This document shows positions 19,244 to 36,893 of a stretch of 64,000 nt of DNA, one piece after another (within the stretch, counting starts at the first letter, position 1; every line of letters starts with the position of its first letter). Both the position numbers and the translations under genes were made by a program. The notes under the pieces are model-generated. The model saw only the letters and a list, made by a program, of their open reading frames with translations. It had not been told where the DNA came from and did not search any database. The DNA comes from Minisyncoccota bacterium (lineage in GTDB: Bacteria > Patescibacteriota > Minisyncoccia > UBA6257 > 2-01-FULL-56-20): positions 58,732 through 122,731 of the forward strand of contig DATJLR010000001.1 of the NCBI GenBank assembly GCA_035509435.1, in the 5' to 3' direction.

Positions 19244-19256
19244 ATTGAGCGTCCCC

Positions 19257-19285: not shown

Positions 19286-19346
19286 CTACTCGGAACCGTA
19301 GAGGTTTTCTGCGAATTACAACTTCAAAAAAGAGGGAGGTAAAGAA

Positions 19347-19973: not shown

Positions 19974-20002
19974 CCAGCCCTCTGTACAAGTAAGGCCCCT
20001 AG

Positions 20003-20039
20003 GCGGCGATTTGCTTCACAGCAATCGCCGTCTTTTTTT
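20003..20039 (+). terminator. Rho-independent terminator
   Basis: GGCGATTGC-TTCACA-GCAATCGCC followed by GTCTTTTTTT. Confidence 0.7.
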
Positions 20040-20355
20040 GAGCGGATACACTCCTGGACATCGTGGAAGGCAAACCACACGTTCAACTCGCAGGGGTTGT
20101 TATTCCAACCCAACGCGATCGCATTGCCGCGGCAAACTCGATCCTTAAATGGGATACCGCGATGCTTTTCGTAGAGGCGCAGCTCAACATGATCGAAAGC
20201 CCCCAGACGATCGAGAAAAAACGGACGCGGGCCGTGATGCTCGTGGACGAAATTTCTGAAACGCGACACCTGAACCCTGCCCTAAAACACCCTCGAGCAG
20301 CACGTCGCTCTGCACGCCGACAACAAATGCAAAATCAGCCAGCACAAACTACCCC

Positions 20356-21147
20356 ATGATCACAGAAACGGACTATTCAAATTACATCATCGAGAACTTC
20401 CCCGACGTTACCGACCAATTCTCTGATAGAGATCATATAAGCGGTCTTTGTACGAACTGCGGGCGCGAAGTCGCGTTCGACATTACGAGTTATGGCGTCT
20501 CATATGTGAACCTTCCGCCGGTCTTTCCAGAAGAACCTCCTCAAAAAATGGCTGCGGGCAACCGACCGAGAACGATTATGTTCCGGTGCCCCATAAAGGG
20601 GTGCGGACACCTCAAGCTCTGGGTCGTGGTGGAGTTGGAGCTTTTGAAAGAGGGGTCAAAAAAGAGCGAGCGACACACCTATCTGTTGAACTCTATCCCA
20701 AACGAAAACGAAGAGATTGAAGGAGTACCCAATGACCCTCCTCAGCTTAAAGCCGCCTACAAAGAAGCAATACGTTGTCTCAATGCAAACGCGCCGATGG
20801 CCGCGGCGGCCATGTTTCGTCGGGCGTTGCAGGTAATCACGCGTGACATCCTCGGAGCAAAACCTGGTAAGCTCGCCAATGAACTCAAGGAACTGAAGGG
20901 CTCTACAAATCCGCTAGGCATCGCTCTCACAAACGACTTCTCCCAAAATGCCTATATCCTCAAGGAGGCCGGCAATCAGGGCGCACATCCCGACGATGAT
21001 CTCGACCTTCTCTCGTTCGATCCAGAAGACGCGGAGTATCTTCACCAGCTTTTCGCCGAAGTCGTCGCCGAGATTTTCGTCGCACCGGCAGCCGCAAAAA
21101 AGGCGCGGGAGGGATTTCTTAAAAAGCGGAAGATAACGGCACAGTAA
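20356..21147 (+). CDS. Zinc-ribbon plus DUF4145-domain protein
   Basis: N-terminal CTNCGRE...CPIKGCGH zinc ribbon. C-terminal AAAAMFRRALQ...ILKEAGNQGAHPDDD...DAEYLHQLFAEVV matches the DUF4145 pattern often fused to restriction or Abi proteins. Confidence 0.55.
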   Translation: MITETDYSNYIIENFPDVTDQFSDRDHISGLCTNCGREVAFDITSYGVSYVNLPPVFPEEPPQKMAAGNRPRTIMFRCPIKGCGHLKLWVVVELELLKEGSKKSERHTYLLNSIPNENEEIEGVPNDPPQLKAAYKEAIRCLNANAPMAAAAMFRRALQVITRDILGAKPGKLANELKELKGSTNPLGIALTNDFSQNAYILKEAGNQGAHPDDDLDLLSFDPEDAEYLHQLFAEVVAEIFVAPAAAKKAREGFLKKRKITAQ

Positions 21148-21151
21148 AAGC

Positions 21152-21496
21152 ATGGATCTGCCCAATAAGACGAGGAATGACGAAGTGAAGGCCGCCATCG
21201 ACCTACTTAAAAGCGGCAAATTAGATCTCGGAGCGTCGACCGAAAAACACATCGGGATCGCCAATGCGTTGGCCTCTCTCGACGTTGCAGAGTCCCTTCA
21301 AATCACATCTGTGCAGATCGAAGAGTCATCGTCGCAAGATAGAGTTGCGCTAAACACCGCCGTCCACGCGCTCATTTCATCAAACGAAAAACTGGCGGAG
21401 AGCAATAAAAAATATGCACGCGCCATGATGTGGCTAACGGGAGCCATCGTTCTCGTGGGCGTCGCGCAGATAATCGCCTCGTTCTTCGCCAAATAG
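21152..21496 (+). CDS. Small protein with a C-terminal TM helix (hypothetical)
   Basis: 114 aa. Lies 5 nt after the DUF4145 gene, so it is likely co-transcribed. Confidence 0.45.
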   Translation: MDLPNKTRNDEVKAAIDLLKSGKLDLGASTEKHIGIANALASLDVAESLQITSVQIEESSSQDRVALNTAVHALISSNEKLAESNKKYARAMMWLTGAIVLVGVAQIIASFFAK

Positions 21497-21500
21497 TATT

Positions 21501-22001
21501 ATGGCATCCAAAGAACGCCTCGAAAAAGCAGCCGCCGTCATCACGATCATCGGCTTCCCCGTAATCGCCGTCTCAATGCTTTTCGGCTTCTACCAACTCA
21601 AGGCAGCATCCGATCAACTGACCGCAATCCAGAAAGTAACAGCTTCACAAAATAATATCGCGCTCAACGCGGAGTTCTTCAACGATCCGACGAACATTGG
21701 CATCATCAATGACCTCTACAACAATACCCCGATCCTCGTGGAGCATGGCGGCCAATATAGTGATGCCCAGCTCGACAAATATCTTGGCGACTTCGACACA
21801 ATCAGCGACGCCTATGACGAGGGCTTCCTCTCGGAAGCGGATCTCTGTGACTCCTTCTCCTACTACATCGCGGCAACGATGCAGAATAAGGAGATCCAAA
21901 AATACATGACGGCGGAGGCCAAGCAGGACTCCAGCTTCTATGGCGGGTTGCCGGAACTCAGCTCGGACGTGACGAATAGCACCGATACGGATTGCCACTA
22001 A
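21501..22001 (+). CDS. Small protein with an N-terminal TM helix (hypothetical)
   Basis: 166 aa. Lies 5 nt after the previous gene. Confidence 0.45.
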   Translation: MASKERLEKAAAVITIIGFPVIAVSMLFGFYQLKAASDQLTAIQKVTASQNNIALNAEFFNDPTNIGIINDLYNNTPILVEHGGQYSDAQLDKYLGDFDTISDAYDEGFLSEADLCDSFSYYIAATMQNKEIQKYMTAEAKQDSSFYGGLPELSSDVTNSTDTDCH

Positions 22002-22018
22002 CGCGGGAGGCTACGCGA

Positions 22019-22074
22019 TTGACAATAGGGCATAAATAATGATATTATAATTCCACTTTCCGAGAGTCTCGGAA
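22019..22074 (+). promoter_or_regulatory. Promoter (TTGACA ... TATTAT/TATAAT) overlapping a perfect 17-bp palindromic operator, TTCCGAGAGTCTCGGAA
   Basis: TTGACA at 22019, a -10 at about 22043-22051, the palindrome at 22058..22074, then AGGAGG at 22096 and a GTG start at 22109. Confidence 0.6.
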
Positions 22075-22108
22075 GGCAGCTCTTCACAACAGAATAGGAG
22101 GTAGAGCA

Positions 22109-22426
22109 GTGGTGAGCAGCAGAGACAGAGTAGGCGCTGCAAGCACCGGTCTATCACAGGCAACTTTGGTAAGAGGCGTGGTAACGGCCGTTCATGAAGG
22201 AGGCGAAGGATTTGCTTCGACCTATCTTCATGATGCGATTGACGGCATCCCAGAAGGGACGCACATCACGTTTTCGCTGAAGGACTGGCAGGGCGGCAGT
22301 ACGCTGCCCCGCAAAGGACAGGTGGTCAGCTTAGAACAGATAACCCTCTTCGAGAAAGGTTGGCGGGCGCTGTGCGCCAAGCCGATCGGCATCGACGGAG
22401 GCAGACAGAGAGGAGCACGCAGATGA
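22109..22426 (+). CDS. Small hypothetical protein (GTG start)
   Basis: 105 aa. AGGAGG lies 7 nt upstream. Its stop overlaps the next gene's ATG (ATGA). Confidence 0.45.
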   Translation: MVSSRDRVGAASTGLSQATLVRGVVTAVHEGGEGFASTYLHDAIDGIPEGTHITFSLKDWQGGSTLPRKGQVVSLEQITLFEKGWRALCAKPIGIDGGRQRGARR

Positions 22427-23205
22427 GAGCCGAAGCAAGGGCGCAGGGACTTCCTAAGGGAAGCGCCATGGACTGCCTGAAGCATTACCTCGAGCAGCTT
22501 CCGTGGGGCGACCAGAGCTCCACCGAAGCGCGAAAACCCATGGCCGATTTTCTCGGAATCAACTCCGACTCGATCAGGCGGTGGTTCACCGGCGATACCC
22601 AGCCGAAAGGTTTGGTGCTCGTGAAGCTGCGGTATTTTCTGGAAGATCAAGGATACCGCATTGAAGAGCTCGAAGGACTTCAGCCGCTGGCGCGCCAATT
22701 GGGGAGACTCATTTCCAACGGCGTGATCAGCTACGAGGAAACGGCGAAGGAGCTCGGCTTCACCGAGGTCTCCGACATCCTTCGCGCGCTCCACGCGAAA
22801 GCCCCCTTCTCAAGCAAACAGATGGCGGGAATAGCGCGCATCTGTGCAGAGCATCCGCTGGAGGTCCAAGAAACCACCAGCGCACCCGCCATCGCGCTTT
22901 TGTCCCGTGCGGTCGCCCTCCAAGGGCAGGCGCGGAGCGCAATACGGGACCGGGTCGAGGAGGACATCATCCATCTTCTCGATGGCCTGAACGGGCTTTG
23001 CGCCGTCCTTGAGCCGCGACTCGAACACATGCTGTCGGACGGGTTTACGCCCGAACAACGGCAGGCGTTCCGGGAAAAGGCGGGGCGGCACCGCGTGTTC
23101 GATATGGCCAATCGCTTCTATCGGCTCAACAAGCAGCTGAATGCCCTGTGCAGCGAGAAAGCCCGCGAGATCACTTCAACCACGCCAACCCAGAACCAGA
23201 GATAG
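22423..23205 (+). CDS. Hypothetical protein with an N-terminal HTH-like segment (putative regulator or system component)
   Basis: ATGA translational-coupling overlap with the upstream gene. GINSDSIRRWFTGDTQP resembles an HTH. 260 aa from MRAEARAQ. Confidence 0.5.
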   Translation: MRAEARAQGLPKGSAMDCLKHYLEQLPWGDQSSTEARKPMADFLGINSDSIRRWFTGDTQPKGLVLVKLRYFLEDQGYRIEELEGLQPLARQLGRLISNGVISYEETAKELGFTEVSDILRALHAKAPFSSKQMAGIARICAEHPLEVQETTSAPAIALLSRAVALQGQARSAIRDRVEEDIIHLLDGLNGLCAVLEPRLEHMLSDGFTPEQRQAFREKAGRHRVFDMANRFYRLNKQLNALCSEKAREITSTTPTQNQR

Positions 23206-23217
23206 AGGGAGATCAAG

Positions 23218-24897
23218 ATGCAGACCGCAGAAAGCAGCAAGATCGACTTTCACCACGGACAAGCGCTCTTGCGGGTCGCCGGGCATTACCCGACGCTCGC
23301 GGAAGTTGTCTACGAGGCCGTCCAGAACGCTCTGGACGCCGACGCCACGAACATCAACGTGGCCATCAACCACAAGAAGCGGACGCTCACGGTGTCGGAC
23401 GACGGCGTGGGAACGACGCGGAGCCGCTTCGAGGACGCACTCCTCTCCGTGTGCAAGGGCATCAAGGACGGGGACAAGCTCGGCCAGTTCGGAATGGGCC
23501 TCATCGCCCCTCTCGGCAAGTGCCAGCGGTTCACGTTCATCTCCACGCCGAAGAGCAATCCTCGGGCCTACCTGCAGTGGACGTTCTCTACGGACGACAT
23601 CTGCGGGCAGGAGAAGATCGACGGCATTCCCGTCGAACCTTTGCCCGACCTGCACTTCGAACGCGAGGGGAGCCGCAGCGGCGTCGCGTGGCGCACCCAA
23701 GTGAAGCTTTACAACTTTACGAAGGACCGCCTGCTGAGCCGCATGACGGCGTCTTCCCTTCGGGAGGGCATCCTCGAGCGGTTCTCGACGGCAATGCGAC
23801 GCCGGGGCGTGACGGTCAACGTCGAGATCGTCTCCTCCGACGGAGAAGTTTCGGCGGAGAAGATCGTCGCTGACGTCTACGAAGGCAAGCGACTGCCGAT
23901 GGAGTACATTCGCGAGAAGGATGCGGGACAGACTACGTTCCAACTCTACATCGCGAAGAAAACCCAGAAGGGCCGCCGCGGCAAAGTGGTCATCGGGGAG
24001 TCCGGCAAGGATTTCACGATCAGCTTTGCGCAGTTCGCGAGCCACGCGGGGGAACTGCTTGACAGCGACGTCTGCGACGCTCTGGAGTCCGGCGTGTTCG
24101 AAGGGCAGATCTTCACCGAGAAGGCGAAGCTCGACCCGAACCGGCGGCATTTCATCGCCAACGACGCGCTCATGGGCCTCTGCATCGCCATCGACGAGTG
24201 GTATCGCAAAATCGGTGCGAGCCACATCGCGAAGGTGAAGGAAGAGGCGCAGGACGACCGCTACCAGCAGCTCGGCATGCGTTCCATGCGGGTGGTCGAG
24301 GGGCTTCTCGAACAACCGGCCTTCGCCTATCTGAAGGACGTCGTGAAGTCGTTCCGCATCGGTACGATCGGTACGCGGCACACTCGGCCCGATGCCAAAA
24401 TCATCGGGACACAGAGCGAGCCGTCGATCTCGATCGACGCGGCAAAGAGCAACGGCAACGGCGGGGGTGGCAACGGCGGAGGGGGTAGCGACCCGAAGTC
24501 GGAGCATCCCGGTCACACGCCCTACACCGTGAGCGGCCCGAAAGGACGCCAGCGGATGATGGTGCGTGGCAACAGTCAGGGCCTCCAATTCCTCTATGAG
24601 GAGATGGAAGGTTCTGACCGGCTCTGGGATCTCGACAGCAATGCGGGGGTCCTTCGCTATAACACACGCCACCCGCTGTGGGCCGAGTGCGAGTCAGATG
24701 AGCGTGCGCTCATGCGGTTTCAGGAGCACATCGCCATCACGGCACTCACCCTCGAAACGGTTCCGAAGGAATGGAAGGAGCAGCATCGCCGGATGACCGA
24801 CGACGCAATGCCTTCCATCGCTTTCTGGCTCCTCAAGGGTGACGAACTTGCAGGGCGCCGCGCGGGACGGCCGAAAGGTTCCGCTTCCGCGAAGTAA
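23218..24897 (+). CDS. GHKL-superfamily (MutL/MORC/Hsp90-like, HATPase_c_3-type) ATPase with an uncharacterized C-terminal domain
   Basis: Bergerat-fold motifs: N-box YEAVQNALDADATNI, G1 box VSDDGVGT, G2 box GQFGMGL. A Gly/Asn-rich linker NGNGGGGNGGGGSD precedes a roughly 120-aa C-terminal domain. Confidence 0.7.
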   Translation: MQTAESSKIDFHHGQALLRVAGHYPTLAEVVYEAVQNALDADATNINVAINHKKRTLTVSDDGVGTTRSRFEDALLSVCKGIKDGDKLGQFGMGLIAPLGKCQRFTFISTPKSNPRAYLQWTFSTDDICGQEKIDGIPVEPLPDLHFEREGSRSGVAWRTQVKLYNFTKDRLLSRMTASSLREGILERFSTAMRRRGVTVNVEIVSSDGEVSAEKIVADVYEGKRLPMEYIREKDAGQTTFQLYIAKKTQKGRRGKVVIGESGKDFTISFAQFASHAGELLDSDVCDALESGVFEGQIFTEKAKLDPNRRHFIANDALMGLCIAIDEWYRKIGASHIAKVKEEAQDDRYQQLGMRSMRVVEGLLEQPAFAYLKDVVKSFRIGTIGTRHTRPDAKIIGTQSEPSISIDAAKSNGNGGGGNGGGGSDPKSEHPGHTPYTVSGPKGRQRMMVRGNSQGLQFLYEEMEGSDRLWDLDSNAGVLRYNTRHPLWAECESDERALMRFQEHIAITALTLETVPKEWKEQHRRMTDDAMPSIAFWLLKGDELAGRRAGRPKGSASAK

Positions 24898-24963
24898 CCG
24901 CGCTTCACCTCCACCAGTAACAGCCGCCACCATCATTTATCATTCGGCGGCTCTCATTCATAC

Positions 24964-25000
24964 CCGGCCCGACAGGCATCATGCTTGTCGGGCTTTTTCA
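24964..25000 (+). terminator. Rho-independent terminator
   Basis: GCCCGACAGG-CATCATG-CTTGTCGGGC followed by TTTTTC. Confidence 0.65.
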
Positions 25001-25099
25001 TCTCGACTTCAACCACCCCTCGCGCTATGATGTAATCACAACTGAAAAGGATGCCTAAACCATCGCGGTAACGCGGTGGCATGGCGGAAGTGCACAAGT

Positions 25100-25143
25100 C
25101 CTACGAGGACAAAGAACCCATCACATGGGGCTGTCCTCGTAGG
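25100..25143. repeat. Perfect 12-bp inverted repeat (CCTACGAGGACA / TGTCCTCGTAGG) with a 20-nt spacer
   Basis: Read directly from the sequence. Intergenic, between the GHKL gene's terminator and the PH-SHOCT gene. Confidence 0.6.
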
Positions 25144-25246
25144 CCATGCCGGAAACGGCGTGGAGGGCGCAAGCTCTCACCCATGCGGTGGGTTCTTTGG
25201 TCGATAAGAAGCTCCTCCGCACGGGGAGCATTTCTATATCACCACC

Positions 25247-25405
25247 ATGAAAACACGAGACCAAATCAACGAACGCGTGAAGCACATTGACGGGACATTT
25301 CCTGGCGTCGCTGGCCCCACGCATATGCTCGCGATCGTCGTAGAGCTCCTCCTCGACATCCGCAGCCAGCTTGAGGAGCTACTCAAAGCCGAAGACGCAA
25401 AATAA
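25247..25405 (+). CDS. Possible small protein (52 aa), below the ORF-track threshold
   Basis: ATG...TAA ORF giving MKTRDQINERVKHIDGTFPGVAGPTHMLAIVVELLLDIRSQLEELLKAEDAK. Ends 11 nt before the next gene. Confidence 0.25.
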   Translation: MKTRDQINERVKHIDGTFPGVAGPTHMLAIVVELLLDIRSQLEELLKAEDAK

Positions 25406-25416
25406 CAGAAACCGAT

Positions 25417-26076
25417 ATGGGTATCTTCACCAGTAAGGCAAGGGAGCGAGAAAAACTCAAAGCCACACTCATTCCATTGATCGCAGAGAAGGATAAGTTC
25501 CTCAAGGACGCGGTAGCGATGAAGCGTATCCCCACGATCACGCCACCGGCCTCTCTCATTCTCGAAAAAGACGAACGCCTCATCCTCGCTGATCCCACGA
25601 CGCTTCGAGAGGCGCGAGCGGTACGCGAAAGCAGCGGCGGCTTCGGGAGCGTGCGCGTGGGTCACGCAAGGATTGGCAGTTATAGCGGAACCTCTTTCAG
25701 CACGCTCAAATGGGCTGACCTCGACAAGGGATCGCTCTACCTCACCAACCATCGCCTCATTTTCCAGGGCAACAAAGAAAATCGGATCATCCCCCTCAAG
25801 AGCATCTCAGCGCTCCAACCCATCCCCTTCGGAACAATCAGTATGAGTGTTGTGAATAAACCCAAAAATATGCAATTCCCCGTGAGAAACCCATACCTCT
25901 GGGAAGCCGTCACGAAAATCGAACGGACATCACTCGGCGACAACATTGTGCTGAAAAAAGCCCAAGCACAAAACGGCAATCTCGATGATCTCGAAAAGCT
26001 CGCCGACCTCAAGGGAAAAGGCATCATCACCGATGACGAGTTCGCAGCGAAGAAGAAGCAGATCCTAGGGCTTTAA
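25417..26076 (+). CDS. Bacterial PH-like domain plus C-terminal SHOCT-domain protein
   Basis: C-terminal LEKLADLKGKGIITDDEFAAKKKQILGL is a typical SHOCT motif. The middle resembles bPH/YokE-like folds. Confidence 0.5.
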   Translation: MGIFTSKAREREKLKATLIPLIAEKDKFLKDAVAMKRIPTITPPASLILEKDERLILADPTTLREARAVRESSGGFGSVRVGHARIGSYSGTSFSTLKWADLDKGSLYLTNHRLIFQGNKENRIIPLKSISALQPIPFGTISMSVVNKPKNMQFPVRNPYLWEAVTKIERTSLGDNIVLKKAQAQNGNLDDLEKLADLKGKGIITDDEFAAKKKQILGL

Positions 26077-26117
26077 GGCATCTCCACTTCGGCAAGGTAA
26101 TGGCATAGAATGGTGTC

Positions 26118-27962: not shown

Positions 27963-28237
27963 ATAGCTTGGCAATCTAAGCTATTATCTGAGGAATCATA
28001 TTGTTGTCCTCCAACACTAAATTCATATGAGTAAGACGCGTGATTGGCACAATCGATACTGGTAATGGCTCCCTGTGTAGCTTTGCCATTCTTAAGTAAT
28101 TGCTCGTATTTGTTTATATCCGAAGATGTTACTAAGAACAAAATTCCGTAGACGAAAAGGAAAATACATATTGCCAAGATGATCGAGTAAAGAAGCTTTA
28201 CTCTTGAGGAAGGCTTATCTATTTCTGCTGTATTCAT
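27776..28237 (-). CDS. Small membrane protein (N- and C-terminal TM helices, DUF3592-like topology)
   Basis: 153 aa. Last gene of the minus-strand KAP operon. Its 3' region overlaps the recombinase-1 3' end. Confidence 0.45.
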   Translation of the reverse strand: MNTAEIDKPSSRVKLLYSIILAICIFLFVYGILFLVTSSDINKYEQLLKNGKATQGAITSIDCANHASYSYEFSVGGQQYDSSDNSLDCQAIQVGQGVEVVYLPADPSINTTDVPPSDRLNSDIFFRWASAVLLTVVLSFGAWRQYKKGAKKE

Positions 28238-28266
28238 GCCTTAACTATATCTAAGGTTTGGTTTTA

Positions 28267-28848
28267 TTAGTTCGGCTTTGTGTGAGTTACTGCATCATAA
28301 ACATCCATGAAATTGCTAGTTCCCAGCTCTTGAATGCTGATATTTTGAATAGGAACTTTAACCGTTAGGCCGTTCATAGTATTGATCCACAAAAGCAGGG
28401 TGCCTGAATAAATTGAACTGCTTTGTTCAGTCGTTGTAAAAAATATGTTATAGAGATCAAGAGTCGAAGAGTTTTGTGGGAATCCTAATTCTGCTATTAC
28501 CGGATGAAGATCTATATTGATGGAATTATCTGGAAAGATAGTCTGCTGAATTGGAAATAGAACAGTTTTACCACTTATCGAAGCTTCATCAACATAAATG
28601 GAAGATTCTCCGTGGTTGGTCAAGGTTAAAAGTAATTTTTGACTATCAAATGTTTCGCCGATACTCGGACTGAAGTATTTTAAATAACTAAGGTCCCGCA
28701 GTTGAGAATTAATCGCTCCTTGCTGTAAATCAATAGCTATCTGCATGGCTCCTAAAAAAAGTGCCACCACAACAGGAATGAAGAACTTCAAGAAATCAAA
28801 CCAATTATTTCTCCACCACTCCTTCAGCTTAGGCAATGCATTGTTCAT
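28267..28848 (-). CDS. Hypothetical protein with an N-terminal TM anchor
   Basis: 193 aa. Starts 32 nt downstream of the KAP NTPase stop. Confidence 0.45.
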   Translation of the reverse strand: MNNALPKLKEWWRNNWFDFLKFFIPVVVALFLGAMQIAIDLQQGAINSQLRDLSYLKYFSPSIGETFDSQKLLLTLTNHGESSIYVDEASISGKTVLFPIQQTIFPDNSINIDLHPVIAELGFPQNSSTLDLYNIFFTTTEQSSSIYSGTLLLWINTMNGLTVKVPIQNISIQELGTSNFMDVYDAVTHTKPN

Positions 28849-28879
28849 TTTTTTAAACCAATTGGAATAATAGGTGCAA

Positions 28880-31687
28880 CTATTCCTTGATTAATTCCTC
28901 AACTTGAGATTCTGCCAATATCCTTGGATTATGACCGACGAAAGCTTTTATGGCTTTTTTAAAATTCTCATCCCGATTCTCCAATGTTTTTAGATTGGCA
29001 AAAAATGTGTCAGATGCATCCGAGGGCAAACCAATACTCTTTATCGCTTCCAGCCATCGCCGCAAAACAGTATCGTCCGGAATTTCATTGTGTCGGTTGA
29101 TAATATTGCGAACGACATCAACCTTAAACCTAGAATTCCCTTGGAATTCATCTGGAAAATCATAATGGATATACTCCAAGAAATCGAAAAGTAGAGGAAG
29201 GGGCTTCCCATTCAAATTATTAACGATGCCGCCCTTCTCGGCCTCGCTAAATTCTTTTGCCGGAAATTTTACCTCAGTGAGTAAATCGAGAGTTTGATAT
29301 GTGCGCCTGATCAAATCCTCTCGAATTTCCCTGTCAATCTGAAAAAGCTTTGTATTTGCTATCGCCTCTAAGATATTCTCTGGAGTATTTGCGGTTGTCT
29401 CTATGAATTGCCTAAGGCAACCATTAATTTCGTTAAGGAGTGGGTTACCTTCAAAACGAATCCGTAGTAAAATTTTTACAATTAAAACTCGCATCCCCCA
29501 ATCTCCGTAAGTATTATAAAGCGCCAGAACCTGACTCGAGAAAGACCTCAATTGAGTATTAGAGACTTCAGGAGTAAGTTGTGATAGTTTAATTTTTTCG
29601 GCAAATTCCAAAGCTGCCAATAATACTTTTTCAGCATAAACCGTCTGGACGGGTTGATACTGCATGAGAAAAAAGAGTTGCCACAGAATTGGCCCATACA
29701 AAAGTGGTGTAAATGGCTTTTCTTCAGTTAAGAATTTTAATAGTTTCTCCAGTGTGGCAACCTGCTCTTCTCCTAATTGCCCCGGAAAAACAACTTCGCC
29801 CTTTAAATGATTTAAAACATTGGCCTTTGCTTGCGCTAGCTCTTTATTAAAAGGAGCAAATGCAGTCCAAGCGTTAGGTGAACTTACAAGGGAAAAAAGC
29901 TCTATGGGATCATTGACATTTTTATTTATTTCCTCAGGTCGAGACGCAATAGAATTTAAAAAGTGAGCAAAATTTTTCGCTATCGTATTTTGAGTCTTCC
30001 GGTGGAGACTAGAGAAACCTTCGTTAAATATTCTCGAAAAATCTATCTTATCTTCCACTGGTAAAAATCCCTCAGGTCTAATAAGCTCAAAAATCCTTTC
30101 AAGAAATTGCTCGAAGGCAACAAGATTGTCCTTATCAAACAAGCTATGAATTGAAACAAAAACATTGGTAAGCTTATCGATTTTATGTTCGTTATGTCGT
30201 ACATAATTTGATAACAACCCTTGAAATTCAGTCATTCCATCTACCTCGACAATCTTTTCATAAATTTTCTTCAATGCCTCCGTATCAATATTCTCGGCCG
30301 CAGTAATAAAGCTCTCCCATTCTGGAACCTTTTTTTGTTCTGGCGTTTCCTTGAGTGAGAAAAATAAATTGGCGCGTTCATCTGAAACCGTTGTTGTGGT
30401 ATTTATAAAATTTGAGAAGTCTTCGTCCCTAAATCTCTGATCATTAGAAAATGACCACGCTATAATTTGATCCAGCGAATCTGATGTCCTTAATACTTTT
30501 GCCTCAAGAATTTTATATAGTTCTGGCCACTTGGTTCTTATGACTAATATTTTCGCTAAAAATGGAATTTTTTCTTTATCTAAAATGTATTCCATATTCC
30601 TCTGCTTAGCCAAGAGGTATTGAGCCGTAAGGGAATTTAGGAATTGGATAATCTCACGGGGATTATTTCTGAAGGCCCGGCTTATAATAAAAACCAGCGA
30701 ACTATTACCTTGAAAATCAGCTACTTTTGTTTTGATAATATTTTTCGATATATAGTTATCGAGTTCAAGATCCAATAAGCGCGGGATCCTGATAGAGAGG
30801 TTAAAAAACTTTCTTAAAAATTCTTCCGTATCAAAATCCTCGCCGAAAGTTCCTCGAAGTTGATCGTTTATAGCCTGGTCATCACAAGGGATAAGGAAAA
30901 TAGCTCCAACGCCTTCCGCTGTTTTTTCATTAGCCAAAAAAGTTTTGATATCGCTCAGTAATGCGACAGCCTTCTCTTTGTCCAATCGATCAAGATTATC
31001 AATTATGATAAGTATCTTGTCTTTTAGCTTCTTGAGCGCTTCACTATAATAATATTCAAAACCTTCAGCAGAATCGGTTCGAGGAGTCTCGACATTTATT
31101 TGAGATATATCAACGATATTCGCCAAAAACTTATATATAACCGCAAAGATGCCTAGCGTAAGTATGGCGGATATACCCTTCTGTGCCAAAGCGGCAAAAG
31201 CTTGATCAAATCCAAAATTCCAAATCCATTGATTAACAGCAAAAAGGGCGAGGAGAAAAAGTAACGTGACAACGACGGGGACAAAAATCTTTACGATTAT
31301 TTTGTCAAAGCTACTTTTTAAACTCTCTATCAAGGAGAAGGTCCTAGGAACTGTTAGTGATTGATTTAATGTTTCCTTATAGCGAAGCGATCCTTGAAAG
31401 ATGTCTTTATCAAACTCAATAAGAAACTGGCGTCGAAAAGAGTCGCGTTCATATTTCCAAGTATCAAAATAAAAAACCTTGCTCCCTTCAGCAACGAGAT
31501 GATCCCGTAATAGATAACAGATAGAGCTTTTGCCAGAGCCCCACTGTCCATAAAGTCCGATCGTAAGCGGCGCGGGACTTTTAATATATATTTCCTTGAT
31601 CTGCTCAGCAATATCTGAATAGCCGAAATGATCAGCATCATTCCTTCCGAGGGGAGCATCCTTTATAATCTCAAATTCATTGCTCAT
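28880..31687 (-). CDS. KAP-family P-loop NTPase (935 aa)
   Basis: Walker A GQWGSGKSS. Two TM helices inserted into the P-loop domain (IFVPVVVTLLFLLALFAV..., AILTLGIFAVIYKFL), the KAP hallmark. Walker B ILIIIDNLDR. Long alpha-helical C-terminal region. Confidence 0.75.
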   Translation of the reverse strand: MSNEFEIIKDAPLGRNDADHFGYSDIAEQIKEIYIKSPAPLTIGLYGQWGSGKSSICYLLRDHLVAEGSKVFYFDTWKYERDSFRRQFLIEFDKDIFQGSLRYKETLNQSLTVPRTFSLIESLKSSFDKIIVKIFVPVVVTLLFLLALFAVNQWIWNFGFDQAFAALAQKGISAILTLGIFAVIYKFLANIVDISQINVETPRTDSAEGFEYYYSEALKKLKDKILIIIDNLDRLDKEKAVALLSDIKTFLANEKTAEGVGAIFLIPCDDQAINDQLRGTFGEDFDTEEFLRKFFNLSIRIPRLLDLELDNYISKNIIKTKVADFQGNSSLVFIISRAFRNNPREIIQFLNSLTAQYLLAKQRNMEYILDKEKIPFLAKILVIRTKWPELYKILEAKVLRTSDSLDQIIAWSFSNDQRFRDEDFSNFINTTTTVSDERANLFFSLKETPEQKKVPEWESFITAAENIDTEALKKIYEKIVEVDGMTEFQGLLSNYVRHNEHKIDKLTNVFVSIHSLFDKDNLVAFEQFLERIFELIRPEGFLPVEDKIDFSRIFNEGFSSLHRKTQNTIAKNFAHFLNSIASRPEEINKNVNDPIELFSLVSSPNAWTAFAPFNKELAQAKANVLNHLKGEVVFPGQLGEEQVATLEKLLKFLTEEKPFTPLLYGPILWQLFFLMQYQPVQTVYAEKVLLAALEFAEKIKLSQLTPEVSNTQLRSFSSQVLALYNTYGDWGMRVLIVKILLRIRFEGNPLLNEINGCLRQFIETTANTPENILEAIANTKLFQIDREIREDLIRRTYQTLDLLTEVKFPAKEFSEAEKGGIVNNLNGKPLPLLFDFLEYIHYDFPDEFQGNSRFKVDVVRNIINRHNEIPDDTVLRRWLEAIKSIGLPSDASDTFFANLKTLENRDENFKKAIKAFVGHNPRILAESQVEELIKE

Positions 31688-32014
31688 CGAATTAGCTTAA
31701 CTCCAATAATGCCGGATTTTTACTGAAAAATAAAGAGCTCGTCAAACAATCTGCGATTGGGAACTCCTGATCGGATTTACAAGCAAAATCGCTTATCTTA
31801 TAGTTAATCCACAACTAAATAGGGTTGCCTAAACTCAGCAATTTGCAGGGCATGGCACATAGAAAACCGATGAAGGCAGAAAGCTCTCAATCAGAGCCAC
31901 CTTCATCGGTCATATCTGGAAACGGATATGGGTCGCAAGACCAGCTGGTTGGGAGCTTTCTGGCATAAAACTCTCAACCGGCCCTAAAGGTCGGTTTTCG
32001 TTTTAAATAAAACC

Positions 32015-32254
32015 ATGAATTTAAACTCACTTCCAAGACATCAAAAGACAAAGATGTTCGTTATCGCTAACCGCAAACATTTCTTTGCGGATGGCATCAT
32101 AAAGAAAGACCTAGAAGAAGCGGAGTATAAAAGACTGGGGCTTCCGGCTCCTCTCTATGCCATGTACGGAAAATATATTCCCGGCAAAAGCTACACACTT
32201 GATCCTATGGCGGACAGCATCGGAGAAATGCAGAGCAGAATAATTATCTGGTAA
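32015..32254 (+). CDS. Hypothetical small protein
   Basis: 79 aa in the AT-rich block, 5 nt before the next gene. Confidence 0.3.
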   Translation: MNLNSLPRHQKTKMFVIANRKHFFADGIIKKDLEEAEYKRLGLPAPLYAMYGKYIPGKSYTLDPMADSIGEMQSRIIIW

Positions 32255-32258
32255 AACT

Positions 32259-32714
32259 ATGGAACAAAAACCGAAAGGCAAATTGCTTGATTGGCTGAAC
32301 CATCATCCTGTCATAACTATCGTGATGATCATGTTCGTCATCGGCATAGTCGGCGTAACGGCAGAGGCAATTGCGGGGCAAGGATCATCAACAACCTCCA
32401 ATAGCGACCTTCAAGCTACTGTCGAAACAACGAATGATGGCATCTCCATTACCAATCTCGAAAGCGACTCATGGCAATCGTGTGAAGTTGGAGTAAATGG
32501 CGGATGCGGATTCAATTTCGATAATCCTCCCTATCAGAGCCATATTTCATTCGATCTTGCAGGAGGAGCTAGCACCACTATTCCCTACAGCACGCTTACG
32601 AGCGCAGATGGCACTCGGTTCGATATAACTACCCACGCAGTGAACTCGATTGTCATCATGTGTTCGATGGGAGCAAACGATCGGACGGAAAGAAGCTTCT
32701 GTGGGATGCAGTGA
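32259..32714 (+). CDS. Hypothetical membrane-anchored or secreted protein
   Basis: 151 aa with an N-terminal TM or signal anchor and a Ser/Thr/Gly-rich, Cys-containing ectodomain. Confidence 0.35.
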   Translation: MEQKPKGKLLDWLNHHPVITIVMIMFVIGIVGVTAEAIAGQGSSTTSNSDLQATVETTNDGISITNLESDSWQSCEVGVNGGCGFNFDNPPYQSHISFDLAGGASTTIPYSTLTSADGTRFDITTHAVNSIVIMCSMGANDRTERSFCGMQ

Positions 32715-32777
32715 AAATTTTTATACCGCTATCTTCTAGGAATTGCCGGCAGAAAGCTTACCTTGCGGTATTAAAGA

Positions 32778-33230
32778 TTATGCCGAATGATCTGTCGATT
32801 TTTCGCTCTGTTTCTTTTTTACTATCGCCAAAAAATAATCCAGAACTTCTCCCTCGTTTAAATGCTCAGCGATTAAATTTTGGATTTGCTTTACCAGTCC
32901 CCACAAGAGCAAGAAGAAAAGCACGATGGCGATAAAATCGAAAATAGGCCCTTTCGGTTTATATTGAATAATAATATCGGCAAATATATTTCCAAAAATT
33001 CCGAGCAGAAGGCCGAGCACTAAAGTGTAAAGGGTTTGCCTCAAATTTCTATTATCATCGAGAATCTTATTGATCTCAAAGCTCTTAGGAGTTCTAAAGT
33101 CATAAAATTCATCGACGACCGCCTTTTGATCTTCAGGGCTAAGGCTGTTCCACTTCTCTACGTCGGAAGATCTTAGCCTATCTGCAATTTCCTTCTTGTC
33201 TTCTCTTATCCGTTTCTCTTTCGTTTCCAT
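32778..33230 (-). CDS. Hypothetical membrane protein
   Basis: 150 aa with a charged N-terminus and two TM helices. Confidence 0.35.
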   Translation of the reverse strand: METKEKRIREDKKEIADRLRSSDVEKWNSLSPEDQKAVVDEFYDFRTPKSFEINKILDDNRNLRQTLYTLVLGLLLGIFGNIFADIIIQYKPKGPIFDFIAIVLFFLLLWGLVKQIQNLIAEHLNEGEVLDYFLAIVKKKQSEKSTDHSA

Positions 33231-33283
33231 ATTGCCTTATATCTTAGAGCATTATCTGGCTGTATCAAGTAGTCATACAAACA

Positions 33284-33396
33284 GCTCTTTTTGAGCGCAA
33301 AAGGGCTCTTTTTTGGCACTTTTCGGCGCTAAAAAGGAGTTTTCACAGCTTAAGCGCGCTTTTTTAATACGCGTCAGTTTTGGCACTTTTAATTTC
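33284..33396. repeat. Cluster of short direct repeats (TTTTGGCACTTTT x2, GCTCTTTTT x2) and small palindromes
   Basis: TTTTGGCACTTTT at 33311 and 33378. GCTCTTTTT at about 33285 and 33304. GCGCGC...GCGCG also present. Confidence 0.5.
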
Positions 33397-33575
33397 AAGC
33401 AGGCTCAAAGAAGACACATCCGCTTGATGACATCAGGACGGAAGAAATGGACTAAACAACAATCAGCGTATTTGTGCGAAGTATAAAAGAGGACATCAAA
33501 TGTGTCCCAGCAAAAACGCGGATAATGCGCGAATAACATCCGCGAACAAAACTCAATCGCTATTTTTTTGTTATT

Positions 33576-33596
33576 TAATCCACAGAAATATCCACA
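33576..33596. promoter_or_regulatory. Two DnaA-box-like 9-mers (TAATCCACA, ATATCCACA), each 8/9 match to TTATCCACA
   Basis: Seen directly, 12 bp apart, 60-80 bp upstream of the wHTH gene. Confidence 0.35.
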
Positions 33597-33658
33597 TTCA
33601 AGCACCAACCTATCGTCCTCGTGCGAGAATAGGTTCACGCCAAAATTAAATCGCGCAA

Positions 33659-34048
33659 ATGAAACTTAAACCTACCGGAAATTTTATGCTGCTACCGAAA
33701 GAACTCGTTTCCAGCCATCTGAAATTACTCGGCACCAGAGACTTCTCCGTCCTGCTGGCCCTTTGGTACCTTCACCACTCCTATTCGACACCTTGTCCGT
33801 GGATAACGGACGAGCGGCTCTCGAACGACTTCGGCTTCAGCAAGAAGAATCTCCAGCGATCAAGGAAGCGACTCAAGGAAAATGGCTTCATCGACTACAA
33901 AATCGGCTACCGGATCGGAAACCACGCAAGAGCAACGCGTTATCTCCTCGTCCCTGATGCCAAGATCCGCGCCTCATTCCGTATCCCTGACGAGCCAAAG
34001 TGGCTACCTGCTCGGCAAGGACATAGGAAGCCAAATAGACCACCTTAA
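33659..34048 (+). CDS. Winged-helix DNA-binding protein (possible replication initiator or regulator of the element)
   Basis: ITDERLSNDFGFSKKNLQRSRKRLKENGFIDYK is a wHTH-like segment. Confidence 0.4.
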   Translation: MKLKPTGNFMLLPKELVSSHLKLLGTRDFSVLLALWYLHHSYSTPCPWITDERLSNDFGFSKKNLQRSRKRLKENGFIDYKIGYRIGNHARATRYLLVPDAKIRASFRIPDEPKWLPARQGHRKPNRPP

Positions 34049-34111
34049 TTAAGAATTGTACCTAAGAATGCAAATAGCAATTAACTTCGTTAATAAATTT
34101 TTTTCAAACAA

Positions 34112-34606
34112 ATGGCAATTAGACTCTACCACCAAAAGCTTAAGGCCTTCGACGAATATCTCGCTCACAAAGGAATACACCGAGGAAAAGTTCAGACGCT
34201 GGTCGAATTTTACCGATTCTTGAACGGTCAACTCGACACACCCACGTGGACGTTCCCCTTCTCGCGCCACTTGAAAGCCGCGCAGAAAATCCTCATTTGG
34301 TCCCAAGACGACCTCGCTAAAGCGAAAGGGTTCATCTTTGACTGCTGGTATCACTACCATAGACGATACCCAAACTGGAATCTCGACACAGCCTACAGAA
34401 ATATCCCACTTCTCTATGACGCAGAAAAAAATCAGATCGAGCACGCGCACCAGACTCTTAGCGGTTCAGAAAAGCTGGGCTTACTGGAGGCAATTACTCA
34501 GGCAAGGTCGGCCGCTTGGAGCGCGCGCGTTGACGATGACGAAGAACGCGCAATGATCGCCAAGGCAAAAGAGGATTTTCTCCACTCCTTAGAAACCGGA
34601 GACTAG
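34112..34606 (+). CDS. Hypothetical protein upstream of the integrase (possible accessory or directionality factor)
   Basis: 164 aa with no motif. The RDF idea rests on position only. Confidence 0.35.
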   Translation: MAIRLYHQKLKAFDEYLAHKGIHRGKVQTLVEFYRFLNGQLDTPTWTFPFSRHLKAAQKILIWSQDDLAKAKGFIFDCWYHYHRRYPNWNLDTAYRNIPLLYDAEKNQIEHAHQTLSGSEKLGLLEAITQARSAAWSARVDDDEERAMIAKAKEDFLHSLETGD

Positions 34607-34727
34607 TCTCTTATATTTAACATGCAACGGAACATTGAGAACCAGGATCAGGGATCAGCCGCAATCGATCGCCTCGCCGAGATCCTGATTCTCATTGCAA
34701 TTTCCCTGCAAGAAAAAAAGGAATAAT

Positions 34728-36248
34728 ATGTCGTCAGCAATCCTTTACCTCCGCGTCAGCTCTACGGCGCAGGCCGCAAAAGAAAATCCCATTGAGACCC
34801 AACAAGAGGCCTGTCTTGCCTATGCCAAGCAAAAAGGATACGAGATCAACCTTGAGACCGGAATTTATATGGACAAAGGAATCTCCGGCAGGACGGATGA
34901 AAGAGCGGACTTCAAGCGGATGGTGGATCGCCTTAAAACGGACACCTCGATAGAAGCCGTTATTGCCTACGACATTTCAAGGATATTCCGAAACGGCGTC
35001 GAATACTTCCTTTTTAAGGAAGACATCGAGAGGCACGGCAAACGATTCCTTTCTGTTAGTGAAGCACTAAGCGGAGACAAGAACCCTGCCAATTGGATGA
35101 TGGAATGGATTTTGGCTGGTTTTGCCGAATTCAGATCCCGTCAAGATGGAGAAAAGATAAGGCTCGGCATGCAACACAAAGCGATATCTGGCATCCTTCC
35201 CGGTAAAGCACCTTACGGCTACAAGAACGTAAGAGAGCACCGATCCGGAGATAAAGACAAAAGATGGATCGAGGTGGATGAGAACGAAGGACCTTGGGTC
35301 ACGAAAGCTTTTACTGACTTCGCGAGTGGCGCATACTCGCTTCACGATCTTGTAAGAAAACTGCGAGAAGAAGGCTTCCCAACCCGAAACGGAAAACCTC
35401 TCGCCGTAAGTACGATCGAACAAATCCTCAAATATAAACTGTATATCGGCCATCTTTCTTGGGGAGGAGTTGAAAACCCAAGCAGTACCCAACCCAAACT
35501 TACCGACGAGGAAACATTTTATAAGGTGCAAGCTATTCTTTCCACTCGAAACCTCGGAGCTTGCCGGAAACGAAAGCATCGATTCCTTTTGCGAGGTATT
35601 TCCTATTGTGGAGAATGTGGAGCACGAATCAACGCAGGCAATCATCACGGCAGAAAAGGTACTTACCCCTACTATAGTTGTCAAAAACGGATTGGTGGAA
35701 ATAAGGTCTTCTGCTCTCAGCCGATGTTTGCCTTGCCGGAAGCAGAAAAGCAATTTGCTCGTCTTATGAAATCTATTCAGCTCTCTGAATCAGCGACCGA
35801 AAGGCTTGCCGATCGAGTCAAGGAATCCGCTAAGAAGTTCCAAGCCAGCAACCATGAAATAAGAACCTCGCTAGCAAAACAACTGGAAGAAACAGAGAGC
35901 CGGAAAAAATCTCTGACCGAGAAATATATAGACGAAAGCATCGATCGAGAAACCTATCTGGCGCATAAGGCAGAACTCGAAGCGAAGGAGGCTAAATGCC
36001 GCACCGAGCTTGGCAAAATCGACAGCAAATTATCGTCATGGAAAGAAACCACGGAGAAAGCGCTGGCCCTCATTAAGAACTGCTACGAGGCATATCAGAA
36101 AGCAAATTATGATCAAAAAATCGCCTTAGCCCACACAATTTTCGAAAAATTGACCATAAAAGACAGGAAGATAACTCAGGCAAAACTCAAAGAACCCTTC
36201 AATTACCTGCTGAAAAAGAAGGTTTCACGGAATACTGTGTTTATATAA
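34728..36248 (+). CDS. Large serine recombinase 2 (integrase), adjacent to ssrA
   Basis: AILYLRVSSTAQ (catalytic Ser), DKGISGRTDERADFKRM, YDISRIFRN, and a zinc-ribbon region (CGECGARI...YYSCQK) followed by a coiled coil. RBS AAAGGA upstream of the internal ATG at 34728. Confidence 0.8.
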   Translation: MSSAILYLRVSSTAQAAKENPIETQQEACLAYAKQKGYEINLETGIYMDKGISGRTDERADFKRMVDRLKTDTSIEAVIAYDISRIFRNGVEYFLFKEDIERHGKRFLSVSEALSGDKNPANWMMEWILAGFAEFRSRQDGEKIRLGMQHKAISGILPGKAPYGYKNVREHRSGDKDKRWIEVDENEGPWVTKAFTDFASGAYSLHDLVRKLREEGFPTRNGKPLAVSTIEQILKYKLYIGHLSWGGVENPSSTQPKLTDEETFYKVQAILSTRNLGACRKRKHRFLLRGISYCGECGARINAGNHHGRKGTYPYYSCQKRIGGNKVFCSQPMFALPEAEKQFARLMKSIQLSESATERLADRVKESAKKFQASNHEIRTSLAKQLEETESRKKSLTEKYIDESIDRETYLAHKAELEAKEAKCRTELGKIDSKLSSWKETTEKALALIKNCYEAYQKANYDQKIALAHTIFEKLTIKDRKITQAKLKEPFNYLLKKKVSRNTVFI

Positions 36249-36256
36249 GAGTCCGG

Positions 36257-36574
36257 TGGTGGAAGCGGGCGGAATCGAACCGCCGTGTAAAGATAGTGCC
36301 GATGGGCCGTCTACGAGCGTAGTCTAGCGAATGCTAAGCGAGTGATCCTGTTTCTCGCGGCGCGCTTAGGATCGTCTGCGCGACGCCAGTTCCCTTATAT
36401 AAGACCGGTGACAGCCCAAGGAACCCGGACTGGCCGATCCCCGCGGTTACGCGTTAAGCGTAAGCGAGGGCTGGAACTCGGTTAGAGTTGGCAGTTGTAG
36501 TTTTTGCAGCGATAACGGCGCTGCGAACGGCTCGCAAACCCACGGATTGTCTTTATCGAAGCCAGTGCGCTCCC
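36257..36574 (-). ncRNA. ssrA: tmRNA (SsrA)
   Basis: The reverse complement begins GGGAGCGCACTGGCTTCGA. The 3' end has a T-arm GGCGGTTCGATTCCGCC, a 7-bp acceptor stem GGGAGCG/CGCTTCC, discriminator A and an encoded CCA. An internal reading frame ends ...PALAYA then TAA. Confidence 0.8.
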
Positions 36575-36682
36575 CATAATGCTGCCGATATTATACCATG
36601 CCGAATGCTATAATAAAAGGGATAGCGATTCCTCGCGAAAGGTCGAAGCAAAACCGGATTTTAACGAATTTTTAATCTTTTT

Positions 36683-36892
36683 ATGGAAGAAGGAAAAATG
36701 GAGGGGAAGGGAATGGCCTGCAAGTGCCCTCACCACAGGGTGATACCGTGGCTCATCATCCTGATCGGCCTCGATTTCTTTTTGGGCGGGATCAATGTGT
36801 TGACGTGGGGCTTCGTGGACATCACGTGGCCGATCCTCCTCATCATCGCGGGCGGCACCAAGCTGGTAGGGTGCAAGTGCTGCAGCAAGTAG
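36683..36892 (+). CDS. Small Cys-rich membrane protein (hypothetical)
   Basis: 69 aa with a GGAGGGG RBS, two TM helices and CxC motifs at both ends. Confidence 0.4.
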   Translation: MEEGKMEGKGMACKCPHHRVIPWLIILIGLDFFLGGINVLTWGFVDITWPILLIIAGGTKLVGCKCCSK

Positions 36893-36893
36893 T

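Follow-up and report, generated by a model that had tools for sequence, protein, structure and literature searches.

The 3′ end of the transfer-messenger RNA (tmRNA) gene ssrA of a Candidatus Paceibacterota bacterium, a member of the candidate phyla radiation (CPR), is bordered by two genomic islands, E1 and E2, each with its own large serine recombinase (LSR). They lie in a stretch of 64,000 nucleotides of contig DATJLR010000001.1, which we call the window and to which coordinates refer unless a related locus is named. Comparison of the junctions with those of related loci makes it very probable that two independent LSR islands were inserted successively at the tmRNA 3′ end, E1 first and then E2. 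The anatomy of the islands, the use of the site by homologues, an empty site in a relative and the junction sequences are observed directly, whereas the exact crossover position, the order of arrival, present mobility and any role of LOOT, a structured RNA present in both islands, are inferred. The following features are central to this proposal:

36257-36574, minus strand: intact tmRNA gene (ssrA), the integration target (ARAGORN; Rfam RF00023)
27747-36263: E2, AT-rich element of 8.5 kb adjoining the tmRNA gene, GC content 0.42
34728-36248, plus strand: LSR2, the LSR of E2, 506 aa from its ATG, motif LRVSS (Pfam and PDB matches)
about 20063-27746: E1, about 7.7 kb, behind E2, GC content 0.56 (moderate confidence on the left limit)
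26118-27962, plus strand: LSR1, the LSR of E1, an open reading frame (ORF) of 614 aa, native up to 27746 (Pfam)
27741-27766: junction of E1 and E2 (attL2), core GGTGGA at 27741-27746, followed by the E2 left arm GATCGAAGTGCG-TTATATAA with its box at 27759-27766
36258-36263: core GGTGGA of attR2, which corresponds to the 3′-terminal UCCACC of the tmRNA; the P arm of LSR2 precedes it, with a palindromic TTATATAA box at 36241-36248
20063-20090: probable left end of E1 (attL1), core GTGGAAG at 20063-20069, arm motif CGTTCAACTCG at 20080-20090 (moderate confidence)

An earlier note on this DNA had placed the tmRNA gene on the minus strand with its 3′ end at 36257 and the stop codon of LSR2 8 nt away. 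ARAGORN, Rfam and direct reading of the sequence all agreed with this, as the TAA stop of LSR2 occupies 36246-36248, 8 nt short of the tmRNA 3′ end. The gene matches RF00023 over its full length (model 1-374, 108 bits), contains a tag frame for which ARAGORN gives the peptide ANSNRVPALAYA, and has a tRNA-like acceptor stem that we read directly as 7 bp, all paired, G3:U included. The smpB gene, which had been described as intact and 31 kb away, was indeed found at that distance from ssrA, at 5162-5575 on the plus strand (Pfam SmpB, E = 6e-42). The AT-rich block beginning near 27.75 kb was likewise recovered: the GC content falls at about 27.75 kb from about 0.52 to 0.37-0.42 and stays low until the tmRNA gene. 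By segment it amounts to 0.417 in E2 (27747-36256), 0.558 in E1 (20063-27746) and 0.576-0.579 in the flanks. A contig from the Logan assemblies (L001) is identical to window positions 26894-38101 and covers both junctions of E2; the two assemblies may have reads in common, so that their independence is not full.

Both genes that had been called large serine recombinases, at 34728-36248 and 26118-27962, encode the three LSR domains. In LSR2 these are Resolvase (PF00239, 9.7e-27), Recombinase (PF07508, 1.9e-14) and Zn_ribbon_recom (PF13408, 1e-08), and in LSR1 the same three domains were found with 1.6e-21, 1.1e-07 and 5.3e-07, respectively. LSR2 matched the TP901-1 and A118 integrases in the PDB, the A118 match being to the C-terminal domain. 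The catalytic domains of 3guv and TP901-1 align with the N-terminal region of the recombinases, with the YARKST and YLRVSS motifs of LSR1 and LSR2 at the expected position. For a coiled-coil in the zinc ribbon we obtained sub-threshold matches only (MAP65 and Nup54, residues ~350-490).

The ORF that had been assigned to LSR1 (26118-27962) is present as described, but its last ~71 codons, from 27747 on, are read-through into the AT-rich DNA of E2, by which 8 native codons are displaced. Of the more than 2,000 LSR1 relatives in CPR bacteria, the nearest are 540-552 aa long and cover 88-89% of the query, and the alignment of LSR1 with LSR2 (23% identity) stops at residue 539 of 614; the last ~70 codons are therefore foreign to the family. 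When the two E2 junctions are joined at GGTGGA, the LSR1 frame closes after 551 aa with the tail DPKLLGGGSGRNRTAV*, which equals in length, frame and tail the closest related protein in our set, P0002 of locus L002 (551 aa, tail DPKMTNGGDGRNRTAV*). LSR1 thus has 551 aa when it adjoins the tmRNA, a predicted 569 aa in the circle and 614 aa at present. This dependence of the tail on the integration state arises because LSR1-type ORFs run across the crossover site. The LSR2 protein would be the same in every state, since its stop codon precedes the tmRNA gene.

At the sequence level, the E1/E2 junction reads ...CCCAAATTGCTGGGG-GGTGGA-GATCGAAGTGCGTTATATAAATTCC... and the E2/tmRNA junction reads ...GTGTTTATATAAGAGTCCGGT-GGTGGA-AGCGGGCGGAATCGAACC..., with GGTGGA (27741-27746 and 36258-36263) as the sole block common to both. 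Removal of E2 would leave the junction ...TTGCTGGGGGGTGGAAGCGGGCGG... / ...CCCAAATTGCTGGGGGGTGGAAGCGGGCGGAATCG..., and the circular form of E2 (attP2) would carry ...GAGTCCGGTGGTGGAGATCGAAGTGCG... / ...TTTATATAAGAGTCCGGTGGTGGAGATCGAAGTGCGTTATATAAATTCC... In this predicted attP, obtained by the reciprocal join, two palindromic TTATATAA boxes stand 27 nt apart, roughly centred on the core. A prediction derived from this arrangement, that the left arm of LSR2-type elements mirrors the box of the right arm, failed at L006 and L008, and the TTATATAA symmetry of the window is therefore not general. The left arm itself recurs elsewhere: the far end of an LSR2-type element in L004, whose recombinase is 66% identical to LSR2, reads GTGGAGAT-GGATGTTGG-TTATTTAAA compared with GTGGAGAT-CGAAGTGCG-TTATATAAA at window position 27742. 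This match is independent support for the E1/E2 junction.

The earlier note had suggested aligning the last 50 nt of ssrA with the surrounding DNA in search of attachment (att) half-sites. This gave nothing long; the junctions have only 6-7 nt in common. Direct or inverted long repeats of the tmRNA 3′ end rose nowhere above noise between 12 and 40 kb, whether we used a repeat finder, a 3-mismatch pattern, blastn-short or Smith-Waterman alignment, and a displaced tmRNA fragment of more than 7 nt was not found in the window. Long att repeats are not expected here, because the recombinases are of the serine type; serine integrases use short att sites in which attP and attB have little in common outside the crossover core, without long flanking direct repeats, and the junctions with their common cores of 6-7 nt agree with this. 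In about 40 relatives the tmRNA gene is conserved until N|GTGGA and followed by unrelated DNA, so that the edge of the variable region falls on the same 5 nt and the tmRNA half is the sole constant part of attB.

For the other end of E1, the left limit of the region in the earlier note, 20040, lies 23 nt from the best attL1 candidate at 20063-20069. The core of this candidate shows 7-nt identity to the tmRNA end and is located right past the terminator of the gene at 19347-19973. Candidate left arms of LSR1-type elements carry a motif 17-27 nt past GTGG, CGTTGGAACTCG in L002 and GGCGGGAACTCT in L331, and CGTTCAACTCG occurs at the same offset in the window. At their candidate left ends, LSR1-type elements carry short copies of the target end, anchored on the core: GTGGGCGCGG in L330, GGTGGAGACG in L002 and GGTAGAGATGGGCG in L331. 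These comparisons indicate 20063 as the probable left end of E1. A repeat of the right junction was not found at the left side of E1. We also considered an outer boundary at 16013 (GTGGAA), which is unlikely: it lies within the ORF of a membrane protein and is not accompanied by the left-arm motif.

We next consider how the site is used in relatives. In total, 80 related loci were fetched by their conserved bPH_2 gene and chosen regardless of recombinases; all are metagenome-assembled genomes (MAGs) of Paceibacterota, Parcubacteria or Minisyncoccia. The right flank of the window is syntenic with L002, at 62-81% protein identity (bPH_2 membrane protein, IF-3, L20, NUDIX, PolX, ClpB and UDG). 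In L002, P0002, which is 64% identical to LSR1, is antisense to the tmRNA and ends 34 nt inside it, having passed through the acceptor and the T arm. The LSR1-type protein P0006 of L331 overlaps the tmRNA by 21 nt, and P0026 of L330 overlaps a tRNA-Leu gene by 51 nt, which accounts for its length of 608 aa. Among LSR2-type recombinases, P0123 of L006 overlaps the tmRNA by 44-46 nt (two RNA finders placed the 3′ end 2 nt apart) and P0131 of L008 by 22 nt; smpB adjoins in both loci. Recombinases of a third LSR family (P0178-like, ~25% identical to LSR2) reach into the tmRNA end in L014, L016, L024, L025, L040 and L050; the elements of this family have the conserved end ...CTCTAAATCACAGGGT|GTGGA and, wherever the sequenced locus is long enough, a LOOT copy. 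At least three distant LSR families of Paceibacterota thus use the tmRNA 3′ end, and decaying LSR fragments lie at the same site in L013. A second stack was found in L332 (10001-16918) beside a tRNA-Ser(gga) gene, where an extended LSR1-family gene of 575 aa is followed by minus-strand cargo and by a 441-aa LSR whose stop lies ~100 nt from the tRNA.

A relative without the insertion was available for comparison, as the earlier note had proposed. In L015, the site is essentially empty: 323 bp separate the tmRNA gene from a homologue of the gene at 14352-15899 (67%, M49-like peptidase), which is followed by a homologue of that at 13075-14298 (87%, Nramp). In L049, L011, L017, L021 and L036 the nearest conserved flank gene lies 3.0-7.6 kb from the tmRNA, compared with ~20.4 kb in the window. 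The DNA between 15.9 and 36.26 kb is therefore variable relative to those genomes. When we looked for an empty site of the same species through exact look-up of the bPH_2 protein, only the same configuration was retrieved. The idea of successive integrations at a tmRNA att site, which goes back to the earlier note, is thus supported by homologues that sit singly at the site, by the restoration of a 551-aa LSR1, by the left end of the L004 element and by the L015 site.

We propose the following course of events. Each LSR gene stands at the tmRNA-proximal end of its element and points at the tmRNA, and its attP would overlap or abut the tmRNA 3′ end. Strand exchange would take place in or beside GGTGGA, replacing only the last few nucleotides of ssrA and leaving the gene intact. 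E1, of the LSR1 type, would have been inserted first, with the LSR1 ORF read antisense through the acceptor and the T arm and ending in ...GGGSGRNRTAV*. E2, of the LSR2 type, would then have recombined with the E1/tmRNA junction, using the constant tmRNA half-site and, as variable outer half-site, the end of E1. This second insertion would have moved E1 8.5 kb away, exchanged the last 8 codons of LSR1 for a foreign tail of 71 codons and split the right att site of E1. E1 is probably immobile until E2 leaves, and would become mobile again only after E2 excision. That the newer, AT-rich element displaced the older one had also been suggested in the earlier note. The logic of the site and the GC content support it, but the order is deduced from them and not mapped. 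The tmRNA half-site is constant and the outer half-site naturally variable, and E1 at the left junction of E2 would have been without a tmRNA half-site; moreover, the GC content of E2 is far from that of the host and that of E1 close to it. Both considerations argue for E2 as the last arrival.

Several observations weigh against this succession. The order of arrival is unreadable from the map, which would show the same final gene order either way, and there is no direct evidence of excision or of circular forms; a recombination directionality factor was not identified. The cores of 6-7 nt could each alone arise by chance, so that the argument leans on their exact positions and on the comparison with other elements. 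Because the codons of the restored LSR1 tail are supplied by the tmRNA side, frame and core position are all that the reconstruction puts to the test. The left end of E1 is backed by one short motif common to two other elements, left arms of E1-type elements do not mirror the right arms, and the DNA between 15.9 and 20.06 kb could be either flank or remnant. With the arms and cores ending up alike in either order, E2 might instead have come first and E1 have entered its left junction, or both might have arrived jointly as one composite, a transfer of stacked islands that is known for staphylococcal cassette chromosome (SCC) elements. We regard these two variants as improbable. In the reversed order, E1 would have needed the left arm of E2 instead of the tmRNA half-site, the only part of natural sites that is constant; as for a composite, single E1-type and E2-type elements occur separately in relatives, and the sharp GC step argues against long co-residence in one donor.

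More weight must be given to the possibility that both elements were integrated as described and have since become a fixed relic, immobile within a stable defence island, although on balance we find this doubtful. The chimeric C-terminus of LSR1 and the split right att site point in that direction, as do the missing evidence of excision, the GC content of E1 near that of the host, which suggests long residence, and the LSR fragments decaying at the same site in L013. Yet LSR2 is full length, both junction arms are intact, the GC content of E2 suggests recent arrival, and the high variability of the site among relatives implies ongoing turnover. It is very unlikely that E2 targets the 3′ end of a resident LSR1-type recombinase, as competition between elements, and not the tmRNA: its insertion does truncate the native tail of LSR1 and disable the right att site of E1, but LSR2-type elements sit at the tmRNA of L006 and L008 where no LSR1-type element is present, and the one in L004 has its own left arm. 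We consider even less likely that the GC step is an assembly chimera. The source is a MAG, and contig breaks just past the tmRNA are common in relatives (L020, for example). Against this, L001 is identical over both junctions, with the reservation about common reads made above, the junction has precisely the core and arm that other elements would lead one to predict, and the locus lies within a contig of 459,847 bp. The successive insertion of E1 and E2 thus remains our preferred reading.

Both islands contain a copy of LOOT (RF03000), an orphan structured RNA described as a bioinformatic motif only:

25003-25229, plus strand: LOOT copy A, in E1; Rfam match 25052-25178, promoter-like site 25003-25031, terminator-like hairpin 25211-25229
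31776-31996, plus strand: LOOT copy B, in E2; Rfam match 31826-31942, promoter-like site 31776-31804, terminator-like hairpin 31976-31996

Copy A scored 70.1 bits and copy B 80.7 bits against a gathering threshold of 46.4, both over model positions 1-121 of 121. With a custom covariance model, R1, built from six LOOT copies, the scores were 95.6 and 96 bits, respectively, and 17 of the 27 predicted pairs showed compensatory changes among the six copies. Copy A has the same orientation as the SHOCT gene (25417-26076) and LSR1. LOOT was also found in the recombinase-anchored loci L002, L004, L006, L008, L330 and L331, and was not detected in L332 with the covariance model. Among the 80 bPH_2-anchored loci, seven of the eight with an LSR at the tmRNA harbour LOOT, compared with one of the 72 without an LSR (Fisher p = 2e-8); in the eighth LSR locus, the sequence ends 300 nt past the LSR. 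A lone LOOT copy in L044 (1957-2075, minus strand) lies in 17.5 kb of sequence without a serine recombinase.

As an independent sample, metagenome contigs were scanned for the LOOT signature, which yielded 120 loci. A serine recombinase was present in all six loci with at least 5 kb of sequence on each side and in 18 of the 25 that have 2 kb or more. Where at least 150 nt were available past the 3′ end of a LOOT-linked recombinase, the gene abutted or overlapped the 3′ end of a tRNA or tmRNA gene (tDNA) in 8 of 16 cases (tmRNA once; tRNA Glu, Asn, Gln, Pro and Met), and three more cases at contig edges involved tRNA Glu, Gly and Tyr. Relative to the recombinase gene, LOOT typically lies 110-400 nt to the 5′ side and is directed away. 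On viral contigs, a loose LOOT pattern gave mostly chance matches and one real LOOT.

We rejected LOOT as the leader of one conserved gene family, as the downstream ORFs are diverse and the largest cluster holds 9 of 110, and also as a coding region: a conserved ATG opens ORFs in the window copies and early stops follow in L002 and L004. The conserved part of LOOT extends past the 3′ end of the Rfam model (window 25179-25229 and 31943-31996). Over 125 LOOT loci, the pairing of the 60 nt past the model with an internal segment had a mean of -29.9 kcal/mol, compared with -17.8 for shuffles (p = 3e-22), and the extension shows compensatory sequence classes and a possible alternative hairpin. By consensus matches only, each window copy has a promoter-like site ~20 nt 5′ and a terminator-like hairpin ~33 nt past the model end. 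This layout resembles an attenuator or the expression platform of a riboswitch. Tentatively, LOOT may be an integral functional part of CPR-wide LSR islands at tRNA and tmRNA 3′ ends, namely a unit of ~180-190 nt (promoter, core, extension with alternative pairings, terminator) that could gate expression of the cargo and/or the recombinase, either as a leader of the riboswitch-like or attenuator type or as a small RNA. Our literature search found no paper on LOOT context or function; the supplement of the discovery paper, which was outside that search, may mention its neighbourhood (Weinberg et al. 2017, PMC5737381).

According to textbooks, islands at tRNA and tmRNA genes are the domain of tyrosine integrases. 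CPR bacteria have tiny genomes, in which few mobile elements are known. The known targets of phage serine integrases are protein-coding or intergenic. The integrases of phiC31, Bxb1, TP901-1 and A118 have the three-domain architecture, the short att sites and the minimal attP/attB identity of LSR1 and LSR2, whereas E1/E2-like elements are islands of 4-11 kb without virion genes. For stacking, the closest LSR analogue is SCC: its Ccr recombinases, which are staphylococcal LSRs, insert at the 3′ end of rlmH (orfX) and keep the gene active, composite and tandem arrays arise as the regenerated site is used again and again, and the cargo has adaptive or defensive functions. E1 and E2 are like SCC in LSR insertion at the 3′ end of a housekeeping gene and in stacking. 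They differ in that the SCC target is protein-coding and theirs an RNA gene, in that the ccr genes are internal and not placed at the element end with an overlap into the target, and in that SCC hosts are Firmicutes. We know of no structured RNA associated with SCC elements. In the myxophage Mx8, attP lies inside the integrase gene intP, and integration alters the 3′ end of this gene, which encodes a tyrosine recombinase. Its state-dependent C-terminus is like that of LSR1 and unlike that of LSR2, which stops 8 nt before the tmRNA.

For genomic islands of the Islander/TIGER type, the Islander paper tabulates tandem arrays at one tDNA and states that serine integrases are not known to use targets of the tRNA/tmRNA type (PMC4383910). 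These islands resemble E1 and E2 in integration at the tmRNA 3′ end with restoration of the gene, in a variable hotspot by ssrA and in stacking with an integrase for each island. They differ from E1 and E2 in having tyrosine integrases and a displaced tDNA fragment of tens of nt, compared with LSRs and a repeat of 6-7 nt (up to ~10-14 nt in relatives). Of the Islander hallmarks, we found the intact tmRNA; a cognate displaced fragment was not found, and the only recombinases detected in E1 and E2 are serine recombinases. Tycheposons of Prochlorococcus are elements with modular cargo, often including replication genes, adjacent to tRNA or tmRNA genes, in which tandem junctions are seen and in which 27 of 937 have an LSR rather than a tyrosine recombinase (10.1101/2020.12.28.424599). 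Their layout is similar to that of E1 and E2. They belong to another phylum, mostly use tyrosine recombinases and are without LOOT; the available text does not describe a recombinase ORF running antisense into the tDNA.

The islands are part of a wider class of elements, apparently not described before, whose targets are tRNA and tmRNA genes. The targets of relatives include at least eight tRNA species (Glu, Gly, Asn, Tyr, Gln, Pro, Met and Leu), and as a rule the recombinase ORF enters the target gene in antisense orientation. Islands at tDNAs and tandem arrays at one tDNA were known already for tyrosine integrases; new are the CPR host, the several LSR families on one RNA-gene end, the antisense overlap of the ORF with the target and the linked structured RNA. 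For CPR biology, such islands could provide a major path for the exchange of defence and surface genes. LSRs whose target combines a conserved RNA-gene end with an outer half-site that is free to vary are candidates for portable landing-site enzymes, and the orphan family LOOT gains a concrete genomic context and testable hypotheses.

The remaining features of the islands and of the adjoining variable DNA are:

33659-34606, plus strand: conserved core module of E2, 5′ of LSR2, with a HTH_36 protein (33659-34048) and a 164-aa protein (34112-34606)
27776-31687, minus strand: E2 cargo, with a DUF3592 membrane protein (27776-28237), a 193-aa protein (28267-28848) and a 935-aa P-loop NTPase of the KAP family (28880-31687)
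20356-26076, plus strand: E1 cargo (Pfam), with a DUF4145 protein (20356-21147), small proteins (21152-21496, 21501-22001 and 22109-22426), a 281-aa protein (22360-23205), a GHKL-type ATPase with HATPase_c_3 (23218-24897) and a SHOCT protein (25417-26076)
15900-20062: extra variable segment, GC content 0.549 (Pfam), with a membrane protein, a PurO-like IMP cyclohydrolase, a uridine-kinase-like protein, a Bestrophin-like membrane protein and two unknowns

The HTH_36 protein, assigned by a weak Pfam match, and the 164-aa protein are 54% and 49% identical, respectively, to the gene pair upstream of the LSR2-type recombinase of L004. The NTPase matches KAP_NTPase in Pfam (2.7e-27) and, in PADLOC, PifA (2e-21), QatA (1e-18) and PDC-S20 (5.5e-18), while the DUF4145 protein gave a weak PADLOC match to PD-T7-4. 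Judged by such matches, the cargo of E2 and E1 is defence-like. The DNA of E1 and E2 had no match in known phage and plasmid collections, and relatives of LSR1 or LSR2 were not found among viral contigs. As a side observation, the LSR2-type island of L006 carries Prim-Pol and AAA_25, in place of which E2 has the HTH_36 protein only, and the LSR1-type island of L002 contains a diversity-generating retroelement module (6404-7800; bAvd gene and reverse transcriptase).

The content of 15900-20062 was not found past the tmRNA in the 80 related loci, save one 30% match in L033, and neither an LSR remnant nor LOOT was found in it. This segment could be a flank specific to the lineage or else the old remnant of an element, without a recombinase. 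As the window genes between 16486 and 19973 are without counterparts past the tmRNA in the 80 loci, synteny could not fix the left boundary.

Some further observations concern the target ends in relatives. In L010-L064, most recombinase-free relatives have a tmRNA without encoded CCA (L015 ends in ...UUCCAC-AAAA), and several LSR1- and LSR2-type elements supply TGGTGGA to the tmRNA end, although this does not hold throughout. Two islands contain, near their far ends, inverted and diverged copies of the end of the target gene, in L002 (2197-2235) and L330 (7788-7802). The former corresponds to the whole right junction, including ATTTTGGGTC, and the latter to 15 nt of the tRNA end; no explanation that we tried fits. 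In L004 (9330-11215), a 563-aa gene on the opposite strand stands between the LSR2-type gene and a short tmRNA-adjacent sequence that still resembles the 3′ end of the recombinase gene (...GTGGAGTGTTTAAGATAG...), which may reflect an insertion into, or a duplication of, the recombinase 3′ region. A long perfect palindrome of the tmRNA 3′ end at the contig end of L037 (~11240-11396) is probably an assembly artefact. Finally, the GC content of the window decreases to 0.45-0.49 between 62500 and 64000, which may mark the edge of another foreign segment.

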